Shown here piece after piece: positions 7,215-64,000 of a DNA stretch of 64,000 nt; position 1 is the stretch's first letter, and each line of letters opens with the position of its first letter. The DNA comes from a virus, in the IMG/VR virus record IMGVR_UViG_3300029258_003681, one strand, 5' to 3'. The notes below the pieces were generated by a model. It ran no database searches and had not been told where the DNA came from. It worked only from the letters and a program-made list of their open reading frames with translations. The position numbers were made by a program, and so were the translations under genes.

Positions 7215-13106
<5,892 letters not shown>

Positions 13107-29643: not shown

Positions 29644-29732
29644 GGGGGATTGGCTGAATTGGCAAAGCGGCGCCCTGGAACGGCGTAGCCTGCGTTTTTG
29701 ATGCAGTCCAGGTTCGAATCCTGGATCCTCCG
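29644..29732 (+). tRNA. tRNA-Ser (GGA)
   Basis: GGGGGAT/ATCCTCC acceptor, GCGCC-CTGGAAC-GGCGT, long variable arm, CCAGG-TTCGAAT-CCTGG. Confidence 0.9.
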
Positions 29733-29734
29733 CA

Positions 29735-29750
29735 GCGAACTGGAGTTCGC
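29735..29750. repeat. 16-bp palindrome copy 4 (GCGAACTGGAGTTCGC)
   Basis: Directly after tRNA-Ser(GGA). Confidence 0.95.
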
Positions 29751-29753
29751 GGG

Positions 29754-29993
29754 ATGACGAGAACGATGAAAAAGAAGAATGCCAGATACAAACAGTGCTT
29801 GATCGGTCGGGAGACCGCTCGGTGGACCGCGTGGATCCCCGAGGCGCTGGCACGTGTCGGCAAGGTGATTGTGCCGAAGGGTGAAGGGCCTGCGTTGGTT
29901 TTGGAGGCTTACAGGGGCATTGCGCTTCGTCACGATGAATTGATGGATTTCTCGGAGGAGTACAAACATCACCGAGGAAGGACGGATATTTAA
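29754..29993 (+). CDS. Small hypothetical protein inside tRNA array
   Basis: 79-aa ORF, ARYKQCLIGRET...TAWIPE. Confidence 0.55.
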   Translation: MTRTMKKKNARYKQCLIGRETARWTAWIPEALARVGKVIVPKGEGPALVLEAYRGIALRHDELMDFSEEYKHHRGRTDI

Positions 29994-29995
29994 AA

Positions 29996-30080
29996 TGAGG
30001 ATTGACAGAGTTGGAATTGTGCCCGCCTCGAAAGCGGTGGCCGTCGTAATGGCGCGGGGGTTCGAATCCCTCATCCTCAG
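29996..30080 (+). tRNA. tRNA-Ser (CGA)
   Basis: TGAGGAT/ATCCTCA acceptor, CCCGC-CTCGAAA-GCGGT, long variable arm. Confidence 0.85.
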
Positions 30081-30082
30081 CT

Positions 30083-30158
30083 GTGGCCGTAGCTCAAGTT
30101 TTGGTAGAGCGCGGGATTGTGGCTCCCGTGGTTGGGGATTCGAATTCCCTCGGTCACT
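30083..30158 (+). tRNA. tRNA-His (GTG)
   Basis: GTGGCCG/CGGTCAC, GCTC/GAGC D stem, CGGGA-TTGTGGC-TCCCG. Confidence 0.9.
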
Positions 30159-30163
30159 CAACA

Positions 30164-30253
30164 GGAGGACTGGCAGAATTGGCATTGCGTCGGTCTTGAA
30201 AACCGTGGCTGTCCGTAAGCGCGGGCATGTGGGTTCGAATCCCACGTCCTCCT
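30164..30253 (+). tRNA. tRNA-Ser (TGA)
   Basis: GGAGGAC/GTCCTCC, loop CTTGAAA, long variable arm, GTGGG-TTCGAAT-CCCAC. Confidence 0.9.
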
Positions 30254-30258
30254 CTGAA

Positions 30259-30331
30259 GTCTCGGTGGCCGAGAGGCAAGGCATTCGGTTGCAACCCGAA
30301 ATGGACGTCGGTTCGACTCCGATCCGAGACT
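30259..30331 (+). tRNA. tRNA-Cys (GCA)
   Basis: GTCTCGG/CCGAGAC, TTCGG-TTGCAAC-CCGAA. Confidence 0.9.
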
Positions 30332-30334
30332 CAA

Positions 30335-30419
30335 GGAAGACTGCGCGAACGGTAAGCGACCGCACTGCTAATGCGAGGTCATCTGAAAGGGTGTGGGGGT
30401 TCGAATCCTCCGTCTTCCG
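30335..30419 (+). tRNA. tRNA-Ser (GCT)
   Basis: GGAAGAC/GTCTTCC, loop CTGCTAA, long variable arm, G discriminator. Confidence 0.9.
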
Positions 30420-30425
30420 CCGTAG

Positions 30426-30499
30426 GGGTGAGTGGTGTAATGGCAACACGCGTGGCCCCAGACCACGTTCTCAGGGTTCGAATCCTTGCTCACCTGCCA
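30426..30499 (+). tRNA. tRNA-Trp (CCA), C at position 33
   Basis: GGGTGAG/CTCACCT-G-CCA; CGTGG-CCCCAGA-CCACG. Confidence 0.8.
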
Positions 30500-30565
30500 G
30501 AAAAATGATTTTGCGCTGCAAGATTCGGCTCTGGCGGGTGGTACAATGGTGGCAGGAGGTAAGAG

Positions 30566-30730
30566 ATGGAGTGGAAAAACATGACGGAAGAGGAGAAGTT
30601 GAAATTGGCCGAGCAGACACAATCTGTATTGAAAACGATGACGAAAGAAGAAGAGGAGCGATTGAAGTCCTTGTTCAACATCGAGGAGGAAGATGCGCCC
30701 ATGGTCCAACGGCAGAGGCATCAGATTTAA
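30566..30730 (+). CDS. 54-aa acidic ORF whose 3' end overlaps tRNA-Leu(TAA); not in ORF track
   Basis: AGGAGG RBS, MEWKNMTEEEKLKLAEQ...; stop is the TAA anticodon. Confidence 0.5.
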   Translation: MEWKNMTEEEKLKLAEQTQSVLKTMTKEEEERLKSLFNIEEEDAPMVQRQRHQI

Positions 30731-30767
30731 GATCTGAGGGTTCCAGGTTCGAATCCTGGTGGGCGTA
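30695..30767 (+). tRNA. tRNA-Leu (TAA), short variable arm
   Basis: GCGCCCA/TGGGCGT-A; TCAGA-TTTAAGA-TCTGA; variable GGGTT. Confidence 0.85.
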
Positions 30768-30771
30768 CCGA

Positions 30772-30844
30772 GCGACTGTGGCCCAACGGCAGAGGCGTCG
30801 GTTTCAAGAACCGAAAGTTGGTGGTTCGAATCCACTCAGTCGTA
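30772..30844 (+). tRNA. tRNA-Leu (CAA), short variable arm
   Basis: GCGACTG/CAGTCGT-A; TCGGT-TTCAAGA-ACCGA; variable AAGTT. Confidence 0.85.
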
Positions 30845-30849
30845 CTCAT

Positions 30850-30922
30850 GGGAGGGTACCCCAACGGCAGAGGGGTCCGGTTGAGGGCCGGTTCAGTGAG
30901 GGTTCGAATCCCTCCTCTCCCA
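30850..30922 (+). tRNA. tRNA-Leu (GAG), short variable arm
   Basis: GGGAGGG/CTCTCCC-A; loop TTGAGGG; variable TCAGT. Confidence 0.85.
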
Positions 30923-30930
30923 CAAAATAT

Positions 30931-31001
30931 GGCTTCGTAGCTGAGGGGTTTAGCACTGGCCTGAAGAGCCGGAGACACTGGGTCGACTCCAGTCGAAGCC
31001 A
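30931..31001 (+). tRNA. tRNA-Phe (GAA)
   Basis: GGCTTCG/CGAAGCC-A; CTGGC-CTGAAGA-GCCGG; T loop GTCGACT (non-canonical first base). Confidence 0.8.
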
Positions 31002-31084
31002 CCGAGATATCAATTTGTCACATTTTGATATCAAATTGATACATGCAATAGCATGCGATTATATGCTGGAGCATGTCGTTATAT

Positions 31085-31161
31085 GCCCGCGTAGGCCAAT
31101 TGGCAGAGTCGTTCGGTTCAGGACCGAAATGTTGGTGGTTCGAGTCCACTCGCGGGTACCA
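31085..31161 (+). tRNA. tRNA-Leu (CAG), short variable arm, encoded CCA
   Basis: GCCCGCG/CGCGGGT-A-CCA; TTCGG-TTCAGGA-CCGAA. Confidence 0.9.
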
Positions 31162-31162
31162 T

Positions 31163-31249
31163 GGGAAGTGATTTAAGGCAGGCTGGGCCTGCGATGGGCT
31201 GTAACCCCGTTCCTCCACGAGGCGAGTGGTTCGATTCCACCGCTTCCCA
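31163..31249 (+). tRNA. tRNA-Tyr (GTA), atypical D arm
   Basis: GGGAAGT/GCTTCCC-A; ATGGG-CTGTAAC-CCCGT; long variable arm; GTGG-TTCGATT-CCAC. Confidence 0.7.
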
Positions 31250-31729
31250 CTACATGAAGATCTTTTTGAGCGTAGCGCGTAGGATGCTCTTGTCGGTTCC
31301 TTTGTTGAGCGCCAGGGCGTCTGTGACCTGTTGCTCGATCGGTTCGTCTCCAAGGCAATAGTAGTTCTGGGTATCTCCCGTGGCAGGACTTGTGGCGAGT
31401 TCGAGAAGAAGGGCGAGATCCAGGATGTCAGACTCGATTTCGAATATTAGAGCTGCACGTGCTTCTTCTCTGGTTTGGTAGATGGAGAGATCATCGTAGT
31501 CGAATCGGTATGGTACTTTTTCTTTGTTGATGGGGTCGTCGATTACGATTCCTTCTGCCGCGAGGTATGTTCCAACGGAGGGGATCTCTCTCTCTGTGAC
31601 TTTGGTGACCTCTAGCGTCTGGATTGCTCCTTCTCCTGTGTTTGACTGCAAGTCGGTGGCGTAGGCTGTTATCCCAGGCTTCAGCCAGTCCATGTTTCTT
31701 TCTTCGTCAGCCGTGTGTCGTTTGATCAT
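31250..31729 (-). CDS. Hypothetical protein
   Basis: Last gene of leftward block; AAGGAG RBS. Confidence 0.6.
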   Translation of the reverse strand: MIKRHTADEERNMDWLKPGITAYATDLQSNTGEGAIQTLEVTKVTEREIPSVGTYLAAEGIVIDDPINKEKVPYRFDYDDLSIYQTREEARAALIFEIESDILDLALLLELATSPATGDTQNYYCLGDEPIEQQVTDALALNKGTDKSILRATLKKIFM

Positions 31730-47058: not shown

Positions 47059-47225
47059 CTGACTACCCTTATATCTGGTATTGGAAGAGCAAATTGCCAG
47101 AGCGCAAGGGCCAGAGGTGTCGCGTGCTTGTTCGTGGCAAGATGAACAGTATTGCTGTTGAGTTTGAGAGTGATGGATATCGGGTTGTGACAAGTCGGTA
47201 TGCGGTGAGGAAGGCGAAGAAATAA
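47055..47225 (+). CDS. 56-aa hypothetical; not in ORF track
   Basis: MTDYPYIWYWKSKLPERKGQRCRVLVRGKMNSIAVEFESDG; overlaps at both ends. Confidence 0.6.
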   Translation: MTDYPYIWYWKSKLPERKGQRCRVLVRGKMNSIAVEFESDGYRVVTSRYAVRKAKK

Positions 47226-47818
47226 TGGGAAAGTTCAATGTAATTTTGTCGGATTGTCCCTGGCAGTACGATGACAAAGCTGGGAAGCGTGGGGCCGATA
47301 AACATTACGCTACATTGAGTATGAAGGAATTGATGTTTCTTCGTGTGGGCGATTTGGCGGCCGAGAATTGTGCTCATTTCATGTGGGTGACGGGGCCATT
47401 TATGTTGGAGGGTATCCGTCTTCTCAGGGCCTGGGGTTTTCGGTATCGCAATATTGCATTCACTTGGATCAAGACGAATCGAAAATCGGGGACATTGTTT
47501 ACTGGCATGGGCCACTATACGCGATCGAATCCTGAATTTGTTTTGCTAGGGATAAAGGGCAAGATGGAGCGGAAATCCGCGAGTGTTCATTCCGTGATTA
47601 TGGCGCCGATGATTTCGCATTCGGCGAAGCCTCCCGAGATCCGCGACAGGATTGTTGAGTTGTTTGGCGATGTGCCTCGTTTGGAGATGTTTGCCAGGGC
47701 TCCATGGGAGGGATGGGAGCAGACGGGGTTGGAACTAGACAATCTGGACGTGCGAGAATATATTGAGAAGGTGGCTCCTGCGCGAAAGGGCCTATCGGTA
47801 TTTGGAAAGCGAACTTGA
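47225..47818 (+). CDS. MT-A70 family N6-adenine methyltransferase
   Basis: ILSDCPWQY (DPPW-like), AWGFRY, GHYTRSNPE, HSAKP, RLEMFAR. Confidence 0.9.
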   Translation: MGKFNVILSDCPWQYDDKAGKRGADKHYATLSMKELMFLRVGDLAAENCAHFMWVTGPFMLEGIRLLRAWGFRYRNIAFTWIKTNRKSGTLFTGMGHYTRSNPEFVLLGIKGKMERKSASVHSVIMAPMISHSAKPPEIRDRIVELFGDVPRLEMFARAPWEGWEQTGLELDNLDVREYIEKVAPARKGLSVFGKRT

Positions 47819-53338: not shown

Positions 53339-53890
53339 ATGGAAAGGTTGGAAGTGTTCAAAGAGGAGATCTTGTCGATGAATGCCCGTAAGCGGAGACT
53401 TCAAGATGAGATCGATAAAATTGACGGTCGTATCCAGGTTCTCAGGGAGATCATCAATGATGGCTCGACAACGGAGCGGTCGCGGGTGAGGGCTGGGTTG
53501 TTTCCTCGGGGTGAGCTTCCTACGCACTTGCTGGCTGTTGTGGAGGAGTCGGATCGGCCCCTTGATTCAAAAGAAGTCGCGAAGATCTTAAAGATGCGCC
53601 ATTCGTGTCTGAAGGATGTTCCCCTGAAAAACATTGAGCAGGCTGCGTCGTCGGGCCTGTCGGATTTGTGCAAGAGGCACCGTCGTTTGAAGGCAGAAAA
53701 GGGGCCTGGTCGTCTGCTTCGTTACTCGGCGGCGCTTCCTCCTCTTGACGGCACTCTTGTTGTGTCTCACGATCACATTGGGATGATCCCCCCAATGCCT
53801 CACGATGAGAAAGCCCCACAGACCGACGAGGATGGCTTTGTGGACCCCGACTCGGTCCTTGGCGCCCCTGATGAGGGGCAGCATGAGTAA
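53339..53890 (+). CDS. Coiled-coil plus winged-HTH-like protein
   Basis: LLAVVEESDRPLDSKEVAKIL...SSGLSDL. Confidence 0.5.
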   Translation: MERLEVFKEEILSMNARKRRLQDEIDKIDGRIQVLREIINDGSTTERSRVRAGLFPRGELPTHLLAVVEESDRPLDSKEVAKILKMRHSCLKDVPLKNIEQAASSGLSDLCKRHRRLKAEKGPGRLLRYSAALPPLDGTLVVSHDHIGMIPPMPHDEKAPQTDEDGFVDPDSVLGAPDEGQHE

Positions 53891-55067
53891 GCCCAAAATA
53901 CTGGTCACAGGGGGGCCTGTCGCGGCCAATCTGGATGCGGTGAAGCTCATCACGAATCGCTTCAAGGGTGGGCGCATGATGGGCTTGGCGCATAGTCTTG
54001 GCAATCGGGGAGCCAATGTTACGTATCTCGCCAGCGAGCTTCCGAAATATGACGGTCCACTTAGTAGCAATGTGGAGTGGATAAAGCATAGTGGGTTCGA
54101 TCACTACATGAATATTGTGCAGGTCCATGCGCGCGATTATAACGTGATCGTCCTTGGGGCAGCGGTGGCGAATCTGATCCCCGATAAGCGGTGGCAGGAG
54201 CTGATGCTCAAAGATGGCAAGTTTCCCTCGCACAATTATGAGGAGGACGATCCTGTGCCGATTCTTTTTCGGATCGCGCCGAGGATTATCAATCGTGTGC
54301 GCGAGGTGGCTCCTTACGCGAAGCTGGTCGGTTTCAAGCTTCTCAGCGGGGTTGCTCATGACGAGCTTATTCGTGCGGCGCAGCTGACCCAGAGGGAGGC
54401 GAGGGCGCATCTTGTGGTTGCCAATGACGCGAAGAATCTTAATGAGAAATTCGGAGTGACGCCAGAGGGCGGAGAGTTTTGCATTGAGAATCTTGCCGAA
54501 ACCATTTACGACATGGCGAAAGATAAGCATTATACGTCTGTACCTGCCAGCTTGGATCTTGGGTCTTTTTACGATGAGGGGCTTGAGCATGAGGAGCCTG
54601 TGGTTGATGCTTTGAATCGTCTGAAGGATGTTGCAGAGGGATATGAGCCAGAGCTGCTCATGGGAAAGCAGTCCAATGGAATGATATTTGGCTGCGTTGC
54701 TGTTCGCGTGATGGATGGCACAGGGCGCTTTGTGATCTCTGCCCGAGGCAAAAAGAACATCAAAGAGGCGACGGTTGTTTGTCGGGTGGATCACGAGAAG
54801 CGAAGATTGGTAGTGGGGGGTGGCACGGCCAAAGCGTCGTTGAATGCTCCGTTGATTGATCAAATCTTCAAGAAGGTTCCCGATGCGAATGTAGTGGTTC
54901 ACTGGCACGATCATGGATCTGATTCAGCTGCCTTTTCATACAGCTTGCCATATGCACAGCCAGGAACGGTACGAGATTCGCTTCGGGATTTCCCAGTGGA
55001 ATGGGGGGATGATGGGCGCATTTGGTTCGCGATTGCTGGGCATGGTGAGTTTAGGGTGATGAAATGA
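53883..55067 (+). CDS. CoaB/DFP C-terminal (phosphopantothenate-cysteine ligase-like) domain fused to class II aldolase/adducin-like domain
   Basis: KILVTGGP...DAVKLITN, GAAVAN, LVGFKL, LVVAND; C-terminal FVISARGK, KASLNAPL, VVVHWHDH. Confidence 0.75.
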   Translation: MSKPKILVTGGPVAANLDAVKLITNRFKGGRMMGLAHSLGNRGANVTYLASELPKYDGPLSSNVEWIKHSGFDHYMNIVQVHARDYNVIVLGAAVANLIPDKRWQELMLKDGKFPSHNYEEDDPVPILFRIAPRIINRVREVAPYAKLVGFKLLSGVAHDELIRAAQLTQREARAHLVVANDAKNLNEKFGVTPEGGEFCIENLAETIYDMAKDKHYTSVPASLDLGSFYDEGLEHEEPVVDALNRLKDVAEGYEPELLMGKQSNGMIFGCVAVRVMDGTGRFVISARGKKNIKEATVVCRVDHEKRRLVVGGGTAKASLNAPLIDQIFKKVPDANVVVHWHDHGSDSAAFSYSLPYAQPGTVRDSLRDFPVEWGDDGRIWFAIAGHGEFRVMK

Positions 55068-55783
55068 TAAATGATTTCATAAACATGGATGCTCCTGACT
55101 ACGAGCGGTTGTACGCCAGATTTCTGAAACGCCCCATTGATGATCTGCTTTTGGCTGTTGGGCCGATCGAGGGCAAGCGAGTGCTTGACCTGTGCGCGGG
55201 AGGGTTGCGCGCGAGCGTGCGCGCGAAGGAGCTGGGTGCCGCATATGTTTGTGCTGTTGACATCTCGTCATCAATGTTGTGGTCGCCTAGCATAGAGAAC
55301 CGATGGAAGGCTGAGAGCCTCCCCGATGTGCGTGTGGTTGCGGACATTTCGAAGTGGGGACGGACGGAGTCTTTCTCTCCATATTTGAGCAATACTTTAT
55401 TTTTTGATTTGGTTGTTTGCCAGCAGGGGGTGAATTATTGGTGGGGCAAATATGCCGTGGCGAATATTGCGGCATCTATGAAGGAAGACGGGTGTTTTGT
55501 TTTCAATACGTTTGTCCAGCGTCCTGACGAGGTCCCCAAGAGGAGAGAGTATGAGATTGATGGGCGATCCTATACTGAAGTGAGCTGGCTCGTTGGCGAC
55601 ATCGTTGTGCATGTCCAAACGTGTGAAGGCGAGTCGCACTCCTCAACCTTTCGCTGGATTCCTCATGGTGAGTTCGTGGATGTTTTGAAGATGCATTTTT
55701 CGGATATTGAGACTCTCTATGATGATAGGTGCCGCTCCATAATTTATGTTTGTCGGAAGGGGTTGACTAACGCAGGCGACTAG
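55064..55783 (+). CDS. Class I SAM-dependent methyltransferase
   Basis: VLDLCAGG, AVDIS, FDLVVCQQGVNYW. Confidence 0.85.
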   Translation: MINDFINMDAPDYERLYARFLKRPIDDLLLAVGPIEGKRVLDLCAGGLRASVRAKELGAAYVCAVDISSSMLWSPSIENRWKAESLPDVRVVADISKWGRTESFSPYLSNTLFFDLVVCQQGVNYWWGKYAVANIAASMKEDGCFVFNTFVQRPDEVPKRREYEIDGRSYTEVSWLVGDIVVHVQTCEGESHSSTFRWIPHGEFVDVLKMHFSDIETLYDDRCRSIIYVCRKGLTNAGD

Positions 55784-56569: not shown

Positions 56570-56800
56570 ATGCAGCTGAAGTGTCCACGATGTCGGAAGC
56601 GTATTTTGAGTTGGAAGATGATAGGTGGAATGCGTCTTCTTCATAGCTATAAGAATGGGAAGCTTTTCTATCAGGTTACGTGTTCCAAATGTGGCAGTTG
56701 GAAGATGAGTCAAAAGACCGAACAAAAGCTCCGAGCGAGAGCCGAGAGCATAGAACAACGCTGCAAATGCTGTGGTGTTAAGAAAGGAAAAAGAAGATGA
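56570..56800 (+). CDS. Small Zn-ribbon protein
   Basis: CPRC, CSKC, CKCC. Confidence 0.55.
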   Translation: MQLKCPRCRKRILSWKMIGGMRLLHSYKNGKLFYQVTCSKCGSWKMSQKTEQKLRARAESIEQRCKCCGVKKGKRR

Positions 56801-57649: not shown

Positions 57650-58405
57650 ATGCCAAAGTTGAATGATGACAGTTTGATGGAGGAGCGGACGCTCCCCAAT
57701 GCTTCCTTCGGGTACAGCGCGACTCGAATCGAGGAGCTAGGCGCAACAGAATACACGACGGTCGACCTGATCGTGGATGTGAGCGGCAGCGTGGATGCTT
57801 ACGCGAAAGACATGGAGAAGGCGATCCAGGAGATCGTCAATGCCTGCAAACTCTCGCCACGGGCTGACAACCTGATGATCCGTTTCGTGACTTTCAACCA
57901 GCGGATGGCCGAAATTCACGGCTACAAGTTGCTGGAGAATTGCAACCTTTCCGACTACGACAATGTTCTCTCTTGCTACGGCGGGACGGCCCTGTTTGAC
58001 GCGGCAGAGAACGCGGTTCTGTCGGCGGTCGACTATGCTAAGAGCCTCACCGACAACGACTTCGCGGTGAACAGCATCGTGTTTTTCCTCACGGACGGGG
58101 ACGACAATAGCTCGGCGGTGAGCGCGAACGCGGTGAAGATGGCCCTGGAAGAGGCGACTCGATCTGAGGCGACAGAGAGCATGGTGTCGATTCTGATCGG
58201 TGTCGGCGTGGGAGGATATGCTGACATAAGCAAGTTCCTGAAGAAGTTCGAGCAGGATGCGGAGCTGACTCAGTACGTCGAGACCAAGGATGCGAACGCG
58301 AAGACGCTGGCCAAGCTTGCCGAGTTTGTGAGCAAGTCAATCAGCGCGCAAAGTCAAGCGCTTGGAACAGGTGGGCCGTCGCAGCCCACTTCGTTGAGCA
58401 TCTGA
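57650..58405 (+). CDS. vWA domain protein (TerY/YegL-like)
   Basis: DVSGS MIDAS, GGTALFDA, FFLTDGDD. Confidence 0.85.
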   Translation: MPKLNDDSLMEERTLPNASFGYSATRIEELGATEYTTVDLIVDVSGSVDAYAKDMEKAIQEIVNACKLSPRADNLMIRFVTFNQRMAEIHGYKLLENCNLSDYDNVLSCYGGTALFDAAENAVLSAVDYAKSLTDNDFAVNSIVFFLTDGDDNSSAVSANAVKMALEEATRSEATESMVSILIGVGVGGYADISKFLKKFEQDAELTQYVETKDANAKTLAKLAEFVSKSISAQSQALGTGGPSQPTSLSI

Positions 58406-59124
58406 TGGCCAAGAAAAAATACCAGCCTGAATTCACCGATCTGACCGCGATCACGCGAAACGCGGATCGGCAGAGGACTGTAGTGATCCTGGAGGACCCA
58501 CACCGAGACAACCGCATGAAGTGGCTGGAATTCGGAGAGTGTCGGTTGCGTCGGATCGAGGGGCGTGAGCATGCCGAGTACGAGCTGCACGCGTTTCTGA
58601 TGCGGGGGGTGACCGATGGCGAGCACGACTCCGCGTGCGCTGTAAACCTGCCCCTGATCGGGGTGGAGTTCAGGGGGATCGAATACCAGCAGGCGACAAT
58701 CACGGCGTTTGTGTCCCTGGAGGGTGGCGAGCCATATCCCAACTTCCGAGTGCCGAGGCCAGGGTACAATCCGATGGAGCAAGAGGATGCGGCGCCGTGC
58801 GACAGCAAGCACTGCAAGGACGATCCGCACATCATCGTGTCCGATAGGTTCTATATGCCAGATTTCGATCCCGAGTTGTACGCGGCGGTTGCTGGGAGGC
58901 GCGTGAGGATCTCGATTGGTCCGAATCCGAATGAGAAGGAGGATGAGGTGCGGCGATTGACCAGGGAGATGATTTTCTTCAGGCATCTCGCAGGGGATAT
59001 GGCGCTTGAAATCAGGGGGCTGAGAAGCACCGAGCCTGACCCAGGCGTAGTCATCAAGCAGTACATACAGAGGGCTGCGGAGAGGGGTATTTTTCTCAAC
59101 GGGAGAGATGAAGATGCAGACTAA
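58405..59124 (+). CDS. Hypothetical protein
   Basis: TGATG overlap with vWA gene; no recognised motif. Confidence 0.6.
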   Translation: MAKKKYQPEFTDLTAITRNADRQRTVVILEDPHRDNRMKWLEFGECRLRRIEGREHAEYELHAFLMRGVTDGEHDSACAVNLPLIGVEFRGIEYQQATITAFVSLEGGEPYPNFRVPRPGYNPMEQEDAAPCDSKHCKDDPHIIVSDRFYMPDFDPELYAAVAGRRVRISIGPNPNEKEDEVRRLTREMIFFRHLAGDMALEIRGLRSTEPDPGVVIKQYIQRAAERGIFLNGRDEDAD

Positions 59125-59311
59125 TTTGGTACAGATTGCTCGCTGCGAGGCTTTCGACATCGTTCCCACCGAGGATGATGCGGAGGATGTGCGGTGCTCG
59201 AACATGGGGGTGAGGATCTTGGAGACCAACGAGTTCGGGCATCTACGACTGCGGTACGTTTGCAGGGATCACGGCTACGAGACGGGATTGGAGTACACCG
59301 ATGCAAGCTGA
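59108..59311 (+). CDS. Small hypothetical
   Basis: Overlaps both neighbours. Confidence 0.45.
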   Translation: MKMQTNLVQIARCEAFDIVPTEDDAEDVRCSNMGVRILETNEFGHLRLRYVCRDHGYETGLEYTDAS

Positions 59312-60158
59312 TCACGCATTTACAATTGGGCATTCGCACAAGGTTTGTGAGGACTACGCGAGATCTGGTGTGACTCCTCCTTATTCGGGATGTTCGACTG
59401 CGTATGCTTTCGTGTCCGACGGATGTTCCGGTAGCAAGGACACGGATGTTGGCGCAAGAATTCTGGTTTCTGGAGTCGAGCAGAGTCTATTTGCAGGTCG
59501 ACGGGTCAAGGCGACGGATGACATTTGTGCGATTATCTATTCCTGTGTTCCCGTGCAGCGGTTGTTGGGTCTTGATGAGGCGTGTCTGGATGCGACGCTT
59601 CTTGGGGTCTATGTTGACACCCGTATCAATGTCTTTGGGATGGGTGACGGTGTGATCGCGTTCAAGATGCATTCTGGTGATCTGGTGGCGTTCGACATTC
59701 TTTCGCCATCTGGGTTCCCACTTTATCCGTCCTACTTCTTGAACCGCTCTCGTCTGATCGGCGTCCAGGAAGAGATGCGGCAGGATCCAGAGCGCGGGTG
59801 GCGCGTGGACTATATCCGCGAGAAGGGGGACACGATCGAACGCGAAGAGCGGTGCTTTTGGAGTAGGGGTCTGGATCTGTTTGTGCAGAGCTACTCGCGG
59901 GGCGACGAGGATCCAAGCTGCGTGGACGATGACGATTTTATCGAGACAGTGGCGGTGTTTTCTGACGGGGTAGGCAGTTTTGTCGATGAGAACCGCCAGA
60001 GCGTGTCCCAGCTGGATGTGGTCCGCGAGCTGATGGCCTTCAAAGGCTACAAGGGGGAGTTTGTGAAGCGGCGACTCCAGGGCTTCCTGCGCGCGTGTGC
60101 GAAGCGCGGGTGGAAGCATGATGATGATCTCTCGATGGGCGCGGTTTACTTGGGTTGA
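59301..60158 (+). CDS. PP2C-like (PPM) phosphatase, YegK/TerY-P type
   Basis: GHSH...CED, VSDGCSG, DATLL, GDG, FSDG, DDD. Confidence 0.85.
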   Translation: MQADHAFTIGHSHKVCEDYARSGVTPPYSGCSTAYAFVSDGCSGSKDTDVGARILVSGVEQSLFAGRRVKATDDICAIIYSCVPVQRLLGLDEACLDATLLGVYVDTRINVFGMGDGVIAFKMHSGDLVAFDILSPSGFPLYPSYFLNRSRLIGVQEEMRQDPERGWRVDYIREKGDTIEREERCFWSRGLDLFVQSYSRGDEDPSCVDDDDFIETVAVFSDGVGSFVDENRQSVSQLDVVRELMAFKGYKGEFVKRRLQGFLRACAKRGWKHDDDLSMGAVYLG

Positions 60159-60182
60159 CAAACGCGCAGGAGTGCTTAGAGT
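60155..60182 (+). promoter_or_regulatory. Sigma70-type promoter overlapping PP2C stop
   Basis: TTGACA-16 nt-TAGAGT upstream of pncB. Confidence 0.6.
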
Positions 60183-60223
60183 GTGTGCTGATGGCCGTCG
60201 AGATGACGGCAGGAGGAGACTAA

Positions 60224-61414
60224 ATGGCCACTGTTGACGATCCAATCATCACGAGTCTTTTAGACAACGATCTCTACAAATTCTCAATGCAGAATGCTGT
60301 GTTTCGGTTGTTCCCAGATGCTTGCGTGGAGTACAGCTTCATTGATCGGGGTCAGACGAAATGGAGTCCAATGGGAGAGAGCCTGAAGGATCAGATTCAG
60401 GCATATTGCGAACTCCAGTTCGCCGAGGCCGAGATTGATTTTCTCCGACGGAAGTGCCCTTATCTCTCGAAGCATTACCTGGAGTGGCTCCAGGGATATC
60501 GGCCCGATCCCGACGAGGTTTCCCTCAAATGGGACGGTAGCCTTCGGAATCTGACTGTCCGTGGGCCATGGTATCGGACGATCCTCTGGGAGGTGCCTTT
60601 GATGGCTATGATCTCGGAGCAGTATTATCGTTCGGATCCTCAGATGGATGGCAAGATCCTGGACCGCAGCCGAGACATCGAGAAAGCTCGTCGCATGGGG
60701 CGGATTGCTCCGTACTCAGACTTTGGGACGCGGCGCAGGTTTTCGAGGGAGAATCACGAGCGTATTGTGCAGATCCACAAAAAGCACGGGGGCAGAAGAT
60801 TTCAGGGGACCAGCAACGTCTGGATGGCGATGAAATATGACCTGGATCCCAGGGGGACGATGGCCCACGAATGGATCATGTTTCATGCGGCGGCCTACGG
60901 CTATCGGAGCGCGAATGAGATGGCTCTGCGAAATTGGTACGATGTCTACAAAGGGGAGCTGGGGATTGCCCTGACCGACACGTACACGTCGCTGCGGTTT
61001 TTCCGTGATATGGATGTTGACCTGGCGCAGATCTACGACGGCTTGAGGCACGATAGCGGTGATCCGATCGCGTTTGCATACGAGGCGGCTGATTTTTATA
61101 TCGAGAACGGGATCCAGCCGAGTTCTAAGAAAATAGTATTTTCGGATGGGCTGACGGTTGATCGAGCTGAGGAGATTTACGAGGCTTGCAAGGGGGTGAC
61201 GAAACCCTCTTTTGGAATTGGAACTCATTTCACGAATGACCTTGGGGTGCCCGCGTTAAATATGGTCATCAAAATGACGAAGGCTTCCTTGGAGGGGGAG
61301 GACTATTTCATCCCGACGGTGAAATTGTCGGATGTTTCGGGCAAGCACACGGGATCCAAGGAGTCGGTGTATTCGTGCAAAATACAGCTGGGATTGGCTG
61401 AGACAGGAGTTTGA
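60224..61414 (+). CDS. pncB: Nicotinate phosphoribosyltransferase
   Basis: SLLDNDLYK, DFGTRRRFS, GTSNV, GTMAHEW, TDTY, RHDSGDP, FSDGL, FGIGT, KLSD. Confidence 0.92.
   Translation: MATVDDPIITSLLDNDLYKFSMQNAVFRLFPDACVEYSFIDRGQTKWSPMGESLKDQIQAYCELQFAEAEIDFLRRKCPYLSKHYLEWLQGYRPDPDEVSLKWDGSLRNLTVRGPWYRTILWEVPLMAMISEQYYRSDPQMDGKILDRSRDIEKARRMGRIAPYSDFGTRRRFSRENHERIVQIHKKHGGRRFQGTSNVWMAMKYDLDPRGTMAHEWIMFHAAAYGYRSANEMALRNWYDVYKGELGIALTDTYTSLRFFRDMDVDLAQIYDGLRHDSGDPIAFAYEAADFYIENGIQPSSKKIVFSDGLTVDRAEEIYEACKGVTKPSFGIGTHFTNDLGVPALNMVIKMTKASLEGEDYFIPTVKLSDVSGKHTGSKESVYSCKIQLGLAETGV
60408..60423. repeat. 16-bp palindrome copy 9 (GCGAACTCCAGTTCGC)
   Basis: Inside pncB coding sequence (C-E-L-Q-F-A). Confidence 0.95.
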
Positions 61415-61415
61415 T

Positions 61416-62237
61416 GTGAGGGAAGAAATTGACAAAGTAGTAAAGTGGATCGGTGACTTTGTGGTTCAGGCTAAAGCTGACGGGGTTGTAGTTGGTCTGA
61501 GCGGTGGGGTGGATTCGGCGGTTGTGTGTGCTCTTGCGGTTGAGGCTCTAGGTGCTGAAAATGTGATTTGTCTTGCGATTCCGATCGAATCAGATCCCAG
61601 GGACATACTGGATGCCGAGCGTGTTTCCCAGCATCTTGGGATTGGAACGGTGTCGGTCTGCGATCTTGGCGCGGCATTCCAGGTGATGGCGATGACTCTT
61701 GACATGCGGTGCGGTTCGCGACGTGGGGACGGTATTGGACCAGACACTGTGCGGACTTCCCGTTCGCTTTGCCTCGCAAATATGAAGGCTCGACTTCGGA
61801 TGACGACTCTCTACAATGAGGCGGCGATGTGCAACTATCTCGTGATCGGCACTGGCAACAAGAGTGAGTTGATGCTTGGCTACGTCACGAAATGGGGGGA
61901 CAATGCTTGCGACTTTGAGCCTCTCGGTGAGTTTTACAAGACCGAGGTGGTCGAGATGGCTCGCGAGCTGGGATTACCAGAAGACATTTGCACGCGGGAG
62001 CCGAGTCCTGGCTTGGAGCTTGGGGTTACCGATCGAGTAGAGCTTGGTGGCGGTTATGATGAGATTGACCCGATTCTTAAATTTATCGCGGGAGGGGGGC
62101 GTTGGGAGTCGTTCGTTGATTGTAACGATGGGATTGGCTTTACGAAGGAGGACCAAGCGGATTACGAGCGGGTCCTGACTATGTACAGAAGGGCTGCGCA
62201 CAAGAAGAAAATGCCGCCTATGTTCCAGAGGGGGTAG
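61416..62237 (+). CDS. nadE: NH3-dependent NAD+ synthetase (GTG start)
   Basis: GLSGGVDS, NMKARLRM, GTGNKSE, GYVTKWGD, PLGEFYKTEV; no glutaminase domain. Confidence 0.92.
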   Translation: MREEIDKVVKWIGDFVVQAKADGVVVGLSGGVDSAVVCALAVEALGAENVICLAIPIESDPRDILDAERVSQHLGIGTVSVCDLGAAFQVMAMTLDMRCGSRRGDGIGPDTVRTSRSLCLANMKARLRMTTLYNEAAMCNYLVIGTGNKSELMLGYVTKWGDNACDFEPLGEFYKTEVVEMARELGLPEDICTREPSPGLELGVTDRVELGGGYDEIDPILKFIAGGGRWESFVDCNDGIGFTKEDQADYERVLTMYRRAAHKKKMPPMFQRG

Positions 62238-62238
62238 A

Positions 62239-62427
62239 ATGAAGATCCAATTTGATATGGGAGAGGTTTTGTCTCTGTTACTCGAATACATTTTAATAGT
62301 GGACAATGAGAGATTCAGGAAATTTCTTCGTCTGAAGCTCAAGGAAAATGAATACCCAGAGACGGCAGCGCTGATCCTTGGGGCTGTCGAAGCAGCGGAA
62401 TATAGAGATAAGGGGTTGTCGGGATGA
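62239..62427 (+). CDS. Small hypothetical
   Basis: Between nadE and kinase. Confidence 0.45.
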   Translation: MKIQFDMGEVLSLLLEYILIVDNERFRKFLRLKLKENEYPETAALILGAVEAAEYRDKGLSG

Positions 62428-64000
62428 AGCTGAAAATTGTAGGAGGGGGGCAAGTCAACCTGTCGAAGCGTGATTTTGTCGGCTCGGGCGGTGAGGGCAG
62501 CGTGTATGTACGGGGTGATACTGCTTACAAGATTTACGCGAAGTCTGATCGCGTGATCCCCGAGGGGAAGCTTCGTGATTTGTCTGGCATCAAGAACCCG
62601 AACGTGATTCGTCCGTTGAATATGTTGATGTCGCTCAAGAATAAGCCAGTCGGTTATACGATGAAATTCGTTCAGGGTGGTGTGCCGATTTGCCAGATGT
62701 TTACGAAGGCGTACAAAAAGCGCAATGGAATCGATCCTCAGATGGTTCTTGGGATTGTCCAGGATATGCAGGAGGGTCTTCGGAGTATTCATGCGGCGGA
62801 TGTTCTTGTGGTGGATCTCAATGAGATGAATCTGCTTGTGAAATCTTCGGATGTTTTCTGGATCGATGTGGACAGCTACGAGACACGGAACTATCCAGCG
62901 ACGGCGATCATGGATAGCATCAGAGACTGGCATGCCAATGGAAAGTGGTCTCGCGAGACGGACTGGTTTTCATGGGGGATTGTGAGTTTCCAGATGTTCA
63001 TGGGGATTCATCCCTACAAGGGCAAACATCAGTCTGTGAAAAAGATGCCAGATCGGATGAAGCAGAATCTCTCGGTTTTTAATCAGGAGGTCAAGGTTCC
63101 GAAGATGGTCCCGAGCTTTGATACGATTCCTGAGGCATATCGCCGCTGGTATCATGCGGTTTTTGAGGAGGGGCGTCGGGTGCCTCCTCCGAAGGATTTG
63201 GCTGCGGTGGTTGTGCTTGCGACGCCTCGTCAGATTTCGAGTACCGACAAGATTAAAATCTCGGAAATAAATTCGTTTGACATGGATGTCCTGCGGTACG
63301 CGAGATTAGGGGGGCTTGATCTTGTGGCGATGGATGGTGGCATTGTTTGCCTCACGAATGGGCGCGGAACGCCGATCACCCTGCGGGGAGATGGTCATTT
63401 TGGGCACACGGAGGCCAAGGCGCCCTTGTACGGCCGCTGGAAAGGTGGCGAGGCAATCCTGGTCGATCCACGAACAGGCGGCGCTGTGGGCCATCCTGTG
63501 CCCTGTCAGTCGATGATGGCGTATGAAGGACATTTTTATGTTCATCAAGGTGATAACATAATCGAAATGACAGCTAAGGAGGTGGGAGGTGCGACCATGC
63601 TTTTCCCACACCCAGTGGCGAATGTGATGCCGAAGGCGACCCAGTTGTTTGACGGTGTGGCGATCCAGAACATGCTGGGGACCTGGTACGCTTCGGTGTT
63701 TCCTGCTTCGAAGCGCAGCTACCAGGTTCGTCTGGCTGATTTGGACGGCTACAGGGTGGTGGACGCCAAGCATGATCGTGGTGTGTTGATTGTGATCGGG
63801 ACGAAGAATGGCCAGTACGACAAGTTCGTCTACCGCTTCGAGCGGGATTACACTCGGACGATCCTTTTCTGGAAGGACGAAGATGTGGTCTATTCGGGGG
63901 TCAATTTTGTGACTTTGGACAAGGGGGTGTGCGCGCATATTGATGAGGCTGAGGATCTTGTTTTGTTTGGCTCTTCGCCATCGGCGGATGGAGTAAAAAG
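62424..64000 (+). CDS. Ser/Thr protein kinase, YegI/TerY-P type (3' end outside window; absent from ORF track)
   Basis: Hand-translated, open to the end: GSGGEGSVY, AYKIY, VVDLNEMN, IDVDSY, TDWFS, GIHPYKG. Confidence 0.85.
   Translation, partial: MKLKIVGGGQVNLSKRDFVGSGGEGSVYVRGDTAYKIYAKSDRVIPEGKLRDLSGIKNPNVIRPLNMLMSLKNKPVGYTMKFVQGGVPICQMFTKAYKKRNGIDPQMVLGIVQDMQEGLRSIHAADVLVVDLNEMNLLVKSSDVFWIDVDSYETRNYPATAIMDSIRDWHANGKWSRETDWFSWGIVSFQMFMGIHPYKGKHQSVKKMPDRMKQNLSVFNQEVKVPKMVPSFDTIPEAYRRWYHAVFEEGRRVPPPKDLAAVVVLATPRQISSTDKIKISEINSFDMDVLRYARLGGLDLVAMDGGIVCLTNGRGTPITLRGDGHFGHTEAKAPLYGRWKGGEAILVDPRTGGAVGHPVPCQSMMAYEGHFYVHQGDNIIEMTAKEVGGATMLFPHPVANVMPKATQLFDGVAIQNMLGTWYASVFPASKRSYQVRLADLDGYRVVDAKHDRGVLIVIGTKNGQYDKFVYRFERDYTRTILFWKDEDVVYSGVNFVTLDKGVCAHIDEAEDLVLFGSSPSADGVK

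Follow-up and report, generated by a model that had tools for sequence, protein, structure and literature searches.

A 64,000-nt stretch of the virus record IMGVR_UViG_3300029258_003681 (hereafter the window) ends in a block of genes that encodes a PncA-like nicotinamidase (A), a vWA protein (V), a PP2C-type phosphatase (P) and a YegI-type Ser/Thr kinase (K), with the NAD+ synthesis enzymes PncB and NadE interleaved among them. We found that A, V, P and K are a fixed four-gene unit that travels together in phages and bacteria. The combination of a TerY-like vWA protein, a PP2C phosphatase and a kinase is called TerY-P (Anantharaman, Iyer and Aravind 2012, as summarized in PMC11090510). With moderate confidence, we regard the A-V-P-K genes of the window as a phage copy of a conserved cassette in which V, P and K would act as a TerY-P-like switch with the nicotinamidase as its output. 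NAD+ recycling would then probably be under phosphorylation control, an arrangement of which we found no description.

Results

The nicotinamidase and the vWA, PP2C and kinase genes form a conserved unit

Related loci were located by alignment to the kinase, their open reading frames (ORFs) were called anew, and hidden Markov models seeded from the window proteins were used to identify the family members. Each survey scan comprised the best 80 matching loci, and the kinase-seeded scans gave 164 loci in all, among them 80 from IMG/VR, many of these on contigs of 100-620 kb, 80 from GTDB and 3 from INPHARED huge phages. The GTDB loci, all but one from metagenome-assembled genomes (MAGs), came from Armatimonadota, Acidobacteriota, Myxococcota, Desulfobacterales, Thiotrichales and other groups. 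Linkage was counted at loci with at least 5 kb of DNA upstream of K, with A, V and P on the strand of K. By this measure, A, V and P accompanied K at 73 of 77 IMG/VR loci, at all 3 of the INPHARED huge phages and at 36 of 47 bacterial (GTDB) loci. The reciprocal survey, seeded with the A family in IMG/VR and limited to loci with enough downstream DNA, recovered V, P and K at 59 of 65 loci. The order was usually A-V-P-K, a pattern seen at about 130 of the 164 loci and in phages as well as several bacterial phyla. Bacterial cassettes are compact (median span 4.2 kb), and phage cassettes are often widened by inserts of 1-3 kb, like the two ORFs that lie between the vWA and PP2C genes in the window. 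An earlier reading of this DNA, made from the sequence only, had proposed such a gene-neighborhood survey of phages and bacteria as a check, and the outcome is not what chance would give.

The sequence-only reading had also treated the triad and the NAD genes as one module. Their association is indeed far above chance; however, it is the nicotinamidase that constantly accompanies the triad, whereas PncB and NadE are frequent yet optional. PncB was found within 10 kb of the cassette in 34 of 77 viral loci (binomial P = 1e-14 against a generous expectation of 10%) and NadE in 23 of 77 (P = 1e-6 against the same expectation). One or the other lies inside the cassette in 10 of the 77 loci, in either of two slots, between V and P or between P and K. 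Their placement varies: upstream (PncB-NadE-A-V-P-K), in the V-P gap, in the P-K gap (the window and loci L006 and L052) or downstream (A-V-P-K-PncB, for example in a Capsulimonadaceae chromosome). In a 618-kb phage, the order PncB-NadE-A-V-P-K is followed by a NadD-like gene, so that the whole deamidated route surrounds the triad.

The closest complete relative, L004 (IMGVR_UViG_3300028840_003497; 176 kb, with direct terminal repeats), retains A, V, P and K, with cassette proteins 68-88% identical to those of the window. Directly before its kinase gene lies a pncB remnant (9542-9907) that corresponds to the first ~105 residues at 66% identity, and neither NadE nor NadD was found anywhere in the 176-kb genome (PF01467 absent). 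Because L004 keeps A-V-P-K and has lost most of pncB and all of nadE, the four-gene unit is the part that selection maintains.

The NadD-like adenylyltransferase gene of the 618-kb phage (IMGVR_UViG_3300022719_000283, locus L246, 1483-2049) lies ~630 nt past the kinase gene. Its top NCBIfam matches were all nicotinate-nucleotide adenylyltransferases, each below cut-off.

All four proteins keep catalytic or metal-binding residues

Judged from sequence, none of the four proteins has lost its catalytic or metal-binding residues, and all look functional. In A, D10/K156/C206 (catalytic triad) and D53/H55/H122 (metal site) do not vary among 23 sequences; H122 lies in a WPPHC motif, and this WPxHC element aligns with ILWPVHC of yeast Pnc1. 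When the A family profile was compared with the PDB, 7 of the 9 matches were nicotinamidases or pyrazinamidases, including the top four (2h0r, yeast Pnc1, 3.6e-12; 29iv; 3pl1, M. tuberculosis PncA; and 1ilw, P. horikoshii) as well as 2wt9, 3o90 and 3o94, and the two others were 3r2j (a hydrolase-like protein) and 3irv (a cysteine hydrolase). The window protein scores below the curated cut-offs of Pfam Isochorismatase (PF00857; 21.7 against 27 bits) and PRK11609 (29.3 against 174 bits), and its relative in locus L003 clears the Pfam Isochorismatase cut-off at 28.7 bits. The family also has two conserved additions that canonical PncA lacks, an insertion of ~45 residues at positions 63-118 and an extension of the C terminus. 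We assign A, from these features, to a distinct, longer subfamily of metal-dependent nicotinamidases.

Across 23-36 homologues, V has an invariant metal ion-dependent adhesion site (MIDAS; D43-x-[ST]-x-S47, T113 and D149) and three invariant residues, S228, S230 and S235, in a Ser-rich C-terminal motif. An AlphaFold2 (AF2) model of V, with a predicted local distance difference test score (pLDDT) of 88.3, places all three serines on the last helix (217-237). V also gave a weak Pfam match to VWA_CoxE. In P, the metal-site residues D18, D40-G41, D116-G117, D222-G223 and D275-D276 are invariant over the same range of homologues. Comparison by hhalign with the E. coli proteins gave a probability of only 17% for V with YegL and 71% for P with PphC. 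Neither V nor P matched any PADLOC model, that for TerY included, even at E <= 10. Because the E. coli control triad itself scarcely matches PADLOC (YegL to TerY at E = 0.032, PphC to nothing and YegI to generic kinase models only), this negative result for V and P is weak.

K is clearly, by its sequence, a YegI-type atypical Ser/Thr kinase, as the sequence-only reading had proposed. The hhalign match to E. coli YegI (98.2% probability, E = 2.8e-14) extends over 289 columns and spans the kinase domain plus the helical extension behind it, and pairwise BLASTP gave 23% identity (E = 2e-8). The DLNEMN catalytic loop and the DVDS in place of DFG that had been picked out are both present (VVD131-L-N-E-M-N136 and I-D148-V-D150-S). 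Among 24-36 homologues, these motifs are invariant, with G22, G23, K36, D131, N136, D148 and D150 and the activation-segment residues S151, T154 and T160, and E52 is nearly so. Likewise borne out were the observations that the kinase gene runs off the window and that its product ends in a long beta-rich region. Since full-length relatives are 559-561 aa long and 525 of ~560 aa lie inside the window, ~35 residues of K are lost at the window end. The AF2 model of a full-length homologue 72% identical to K (pLDDT 89.5) consists of a kinase domain (1-250), a low-confidence linker and ~27 strands in residues 269-557, and Foldseek matched this model to the kinase-WD40 region of LRRK2, to BamB and to the N-terminal propeller domain of clathrin. 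From these modeled strands and structural matches, we predict that the C-terminal region is a beta-propeller, for which strand count alone gives an estimate of about seven blades.

The K family has more than 1,144 full-length relatives. In PADLOC, K gave weak matches, and these to the PD-T4-6 and mad6 kinase models only. A FastTree phylogeny of 152 kinases placed the window K in a virus-only clade. Virus and genome labels were strongly clustered in this tree, and its well-supported branches require at least 6-7 switches between them, which could be transfers or mis-binned contigs.

Bacterial copies of the cassette lie beside housekeeping and NAD-related genes

In a complete 4.4-Mb Capsulimonadaceae chromosome, leuB, leuA, a serpin gene and a PAS histidine kinase gene precede A-V-P-K and pncB, and the other flank holds genes for an FGGY kinase, an MFS transporter and two sulfate-assimilation-type proteins (an EF-Tu-family GTPase and a PAPS-reductase-family protein). 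The surroundings of the cassette at this site are thus housekeeping genes, neither a prophage nor a defense island. On the basis of these flank genes, we rejected a prophage origin for the Capsulimonadaceae chromosome, a rejection that applies to this chromosome and not to short MAG contigs.

NrtR, a Nudix protein with a winged helix-turn-helix domain (Pfam NrtR_WHD), controls bacterial NAD salvage operons. Of 8 bacterial loci scanned with Pfam, 2 have an NrtR gene, with Nudix and NrtR winged-helix domains, immediately before A, and one of these 2 also has an ADP-ribosylglycohydrolase gene. On a contig of a Pyrinomonadaceae MAG, a divergent ADP-ribosylglycohydrolase gene and NrtR lie directly upstream of the cassette (locus L110, 5341-7246), and on a Desulfobacterales contig NrtR lies upstream of the cassette (locus L138, 6149-6835). 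By phmmer, NrtR-like matches occurred at 25 bacterial and 14 viral loci, some of which may be plain Nudix proteins, and the 64-kb window gave no such match.

Two Chthonomonadaceae loci have a large divergent gene for a BTAD-NB-ARC-TPR (SARP/MalT-like) regulator just upstream of the cassette (L086, 3952-7029, and L088, 3730-6495).

Organization of the gene block in the window

Matches to PHROGs for tape measure, tail, baseplate wedge and head proteins and for a helicase show that the window is phage DNA, in agreement with the earlier view that a phage carries the triad. Over the whole 64 kb, GC skew is strongly positive. The last 7.2 kb form one tight co-directional block on the + strand, from the pncA-like gene through the kinase gene, in which neighboring genes overlap or are separated by gaps of no more than 65 nt (Table 1). 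The order pncA, vWA, two ORFs, PP2C, pncB, nadE, small ORF and kinase given by the sequence-only reading agrees with the ORFs, their families and their common strand. Its gene identities for 57650-64000 hold as well, but because pncA belongs to the unit, the unit starts at 56797.

Table 1. Genes of the block at the 3' end of the window and the matches that identify them.
Feature	Coordinates	Strand	Evidence and remarks
PncA-like nicotinamidase (A), 266 aa	56797..57597	+	divergent, longer isochorismatase-fold subfamily; Pfam, NCBIfam, alignment, PDB profile
vWA protein (V), 251 aa	57650..58405	+	PF00092, 25.4 bits (cut-off 23.8)
ORF without family match between vWA and PP2C, 239 aa	58405..59124	+	no Pfam, NCBIfam or PADLOC match
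Small ORF without family match (putative), 67 aa	59108..59311	+	no homologue in surveyed loci
PP2C-type phosphatase (P), 285 aa	59301..60158	+	PF13672 (PP2C_2), 24.1 bits (cut-off 24)
PncB, nicotinate phosphoribosyltransferase, 396 aa	60224..61414	+	NF003704, 425 bits (cut-off 379); TIGR01514, 374 (cut-off 269.55); Pfam NAPRTase, NAPRTase_N
NadE, NH3-type NAD+ synthetase	61416..62237	+	TIGR00552, 202.8 bits (cut-off 63.65); PF02540, 9.4e-62
Small ORF, 62 aa	62239..62427	+	4-nt overlap with kinase start; no family match, no homologue in surveyed loci
YegI-type Ser/Thr kinase with predicted beta-propeller (K)	62424..64000 (ORF 62424-63998)	+	open 3' at window end; Pkinase, 34.8 bits (cut-off 31.7)

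PncB and NadE, the Preiss-Handler genes of the window, both score above curated cut-offs. The longest nadE ORF begins at 61332; the likely start is an in-frame GTG at 61416, 2 nt past the pncB stop, which is supported by an alignment with a homologue that begins at residue 23 of the longest ORF. A phmmer search with phage CTP_transf-like queries, which has limited sensitivity, found no NadD in the 64-kb window, so a complete pathway would rely on the host or on DNA beyond the window.

The 67-aa and 62-aa ORFs matched no family in Pfam, NCBIfam or PADLOC, and the 164 surveyed loci hold no homologue of either. The 239-aa ORF is treated as lineage-specific cargo outside the conserved unit, because it has no Pfam match, only one match among the 164 loci and no usable match in an Atlas search. 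Megablast of the region against the INPHARED phages gave no match, and a promoter and terminator scan of the region gave counts not above those of shuffled sequence. The best sigma-70-like site of the region (TTGACA-16-TAGAGT, 60155-60182) falls within the 65-nt gap between the PP2C and pncB genes, and could be a candidate internal promoter for pncB-nadE-kinase.

Upstream of the block, a Cys-rich 76-aa ORF (56570-56800) overlaps the pncA start by 4 nt and has a weak, sub-cut-off match to Lar restriction alleviation proteins (E = 0.008). A 420-aa protein (53805-55067) has a DFP/CoaB-like domain (PF04127, 8e-18) and a weakly class II aldolase-like C-terminal part, and the two closest IMG/VR relatives each have it upstream of their cassette, at 61% and 51% identity, alongside a conserved methyltransferase-like ORF (55064-55783); the 420-aa protein may represent a second cofactor-metabolism gene beside the NAD block. 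An MT-A70 family methyltransferase (PF05063, 7e-26) is encoded at 47225-47818. Farther upstream, 13 tRNA genes lie on the + strand at 29644-31250 (4 Ser, 4 Leu and 1 each for His, Cys, Trp, Phe and Tyr), and a 393-aa "ORF" (29995-31176) that spans this array is almost certainly not a gene.

Discussion

A proposed phosphorylation switch on nicotinamide recycling

We propose that V, P and K would form a phosphorylation switch whose output is the nicotinamidase, and that the switch would gate the first, committing step of the route from nicotinamide through nicotinate, nicotinate mononucleotide and nicotinate adenine dinucleotide to NAD+. The propeller of K would be the likely sensor or docking domain, and the most plausible phospho-acceptors would be S228, S230 and S235 of V together with S151, T154 and T160 in the activation segment of K. 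Phosphorylation might determine whether the MIDAS site of V holds the nicotinamidase, or its metal, or lets it go. The benefit to the phage would be that the cassette, with PncB and NadE and with NadD from the host, could rebuild NAD+ from nicotinamide, which might come from host NADase defenses or from NAD+-consuming enzymes. In favor of this proposal, PncB, NadE, the NadD-like gene of one 618-kb phage, and the bacterial NrtR and ADP-ribosylglycohydrolase genes recur in or beside the unit.

Several points weigh against it. The window A falls under both the Isochorismatase and the PRK11609 cut-offs, V and P resemble E. coli YegL and PphC only in a generic way, PADLOC gives nothing for V or P and for K only other kinase models, and the window has no NadD detectable by phmmer. 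With surveys of the best 80 loci per scan, more distant members of the families lie outside the sample, and many of the "bacterial" MAG contigs are short and possibly mis-binned phage. Finally, the substrate, the signal and the direction of control are all inferred from sequence.

A bolder form of the proposal, which we put forward as a tentative idea and consider doubtful, is that the cassette is a third way for phages to reconstitute NAD+, inducible and gated by a signal. Here, the propeller-kinase would sense either NAD+/ADP-ribose status or some protein or product of the host's NADase immunity, and phosphorylate the vWA adaptor; the nicotinamidase would thereby be switched on and the nicotinamide released by the defense converted to NAD+, and the same switch would serve salvage in several bacterial phyla. 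If true, this would be the first physiological output for the TerY-P/YegL-PphC-YegI class of triads.

Alternative explanations

A serious variant, albeit an unlikely one in our judgment, is that the cassette is a metal-loading or maturation device, in which V would be metallochaperone-like and insert or withhold the metal of the nicotinamidase, and K and P would set V by metal supply and not by NAD+. It is serious because in vitro work ties nicotinamidase activity to metal delivery: activity is limited by metal loading, and metal-carrying proteins are reported to reactivate the enzyme (PMC6941528). There are precedents in the vWA partners of chelatases and of CoxE/NorD-type systems, and the invariant MIDAS residues and weak VWA_CoxE match of V, the retained metal site of A and the hypothesized metal sensing by the TerY-P triad (PMC11090510) all fit. 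However, the cassette lacks an AAA+/MoxR partner, its recurrent neighbors are PncB, NadE, NrtR and ADP-ribosylglycohydrolase rather than metal transporters, and such a device has no obvious use for a phage. A itself might instead not be a nicotinamidase in vivo; because its scores miss the curated cut-offs for Isochorismatase and PncA, its substrate could be other than nicotinamide, and the insertion and extension absent from canonical PncA would suit hydrolysis of a different amide, such as a nicotinamide-containing nucleotide or a signaling molecule, in which case the cassette would process a signal and not vitamin B3. We think this very unlikely, given that A aligns with yeast Pnc1 at its catalytic triad, metal site and WPxHC motif, that nicotinamidases dominate the PDB matches, and that the commonest neighbor is PncB, the next enzyme of the pathway.

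The sequence-only reading had offered superinfection exclusion or a decoy against a host TerY-P as the purpose of the phage genes, and this idea found no support, as the bacterial copies whose surroundings were examined lie beside housekeeping, pncB, NrtR and ADP-ribosylglycohydrolase genes and in no defense island. In such a scheme, the nicotinamidase would be an effector or accessory, for example one that starves a rival phage of nicotinamide, or the phage genes would mislead the triad of the host. Exclusion systems do occur in phages, K weakly matches the PD-T4-6 and MAD6 defense kinases, and TerY-P-like modules with an OB-fold kinase are stand-alone defense systems (Gao 2020, as cited in PMC11090510). 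We nevertheless hold a defensive role to be distinctly improbable: the Capsulimonadaceae cassette sits between leucine-biosynthesis genes and, after pncB, sulfate-assimilation-type genes, NrtR adjoins the cassette in other bacterial loci, V and P match no PADLOC model, and the tail of K is predicted to be a propeller and not an OB fold or zinc ribbon. Moreover, a nicotinamidase supplies NAD+ synthesis and does not destroy NAD+, and the presence of the cassette on more than 100 phage contigs is in keeping with a benefit to the phage. A last alternative is that an unrelated triad and the NAD genes came to lie together by chance, as phage genomes are mosaic and extra ORFs have been inserted within the block. 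We reject this explanation as extremely improbable, since some 130 of the 164 loci, spread over phages and several bacterial phyla, share these four genes and their order, and the reciprocal survey concurs.

Triads of vWA, PP2C and kinase are widespread, E. coli included, and their output is not known beyond the hypothesized metal-sensing phospho-switch. A triad hard-wired to one simple, assayable enzyme therefore offers a direct way into what such triads do. The cassette also suggests a post-translational layer of control on NAD+ salvage in large phages and in several bacterial phyla, which the phage NAD+ gene literature that we searched does not mention. Because many defenses destroy NAD+, its salvage is a focus of phage-bacterium conflict.

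Comparison with known systems

Our literature search found no paper that describes the four-gene cassette and none that joins "TerY-P" and "nicotinamidase", the 2012 TerY-P paper being outside that search; likewise, a 2022 survey of NAD+-ADP-ribose systems in viruses makes no mention of PncA, isochorismatase, PP2C or NadE. As in the TerY-P triad and E. coli yegL-pphC-yegI, the vWA, PP2C and Ser/Thr kinase genes of the window are co-directional in one operon, the PP2C and MIDAS metal sites are intact, and the triad is a module joined to another function. That function is here a nicotinamidase, in contrast to Ter genes, CoCoNuT or restriction systems; no Ter genes were noted, though no systematic search for them was made. 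The TerY-P kinase carries a zinc ribbon in CoCoNuT-linked triads and an OB fold in stand-alone defense modules, and the triad has been hypothesized to be a "metal-sensing phosphorylation-dependent signalling switch" for varied effector systems (PMC11090510). K of the window ends instead in a predicted beta-propeller, and not in a zinc ribbon, an OB fold or the two-pass membrane region of YegI. YegI is an active kinase despite its atypical motifs (10.1101/819920) and lacks the canonical Asn and the alpha-C Glu. K is more canonical, with both the Asn (N136) and the alpha-C Glu (E52), and V and P are only remotely similar to YegL and PphC. We call the window triad TerY-P-like because of its architecture and kinase type, as judged by sequence, and do not call it a member of the defense TerY-P family. 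The sequence-only reading had described TerY-P, exemplified by E. coli yegL/yegK/yegI, as a reported anti-phage system. This is so for the modules with an OB-fold kinase, to the extent that PMC11090510 relays the original report (Gao 2020), but it is too strong for the E. coli genes, since we found no report of anti-phage activity for yegL/pphC/yegI in the literature examined.

The Preiss-Handler clusters of jumbo phages (PMC11662467) likewise place phage pncB and nadE (elsewhere nadD) in an NAD+ block. The text of that paper contains no kinase, phosphatase or vWA (0 occurrences), whereas in the window the NAD genes are interleaved with A-V-P-K, and in relatives of the window they are subordinate to the A-V-P-K unit. 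The cassette resembles NrtR-controlled NAD salvage operons in that some bacterial loci have NrtR immediately before A, though none was found in the window. A likeness of purpose links it to the phage NAD+ reconstitution pathways NARP1 and NARP2 (10.1101/2024.02.11.579819), which reportedly act after NADase-type defense has split NAD+ into ADP-ribose and nicotinamide. NAD+ restoration after such defense is likely the shared purpose, but the cassette and its partners would reach it with other enzymes, PncA, PncB and NadE of the deamidated route, with a need for NadD and with a signaling triad coupled to the first step.

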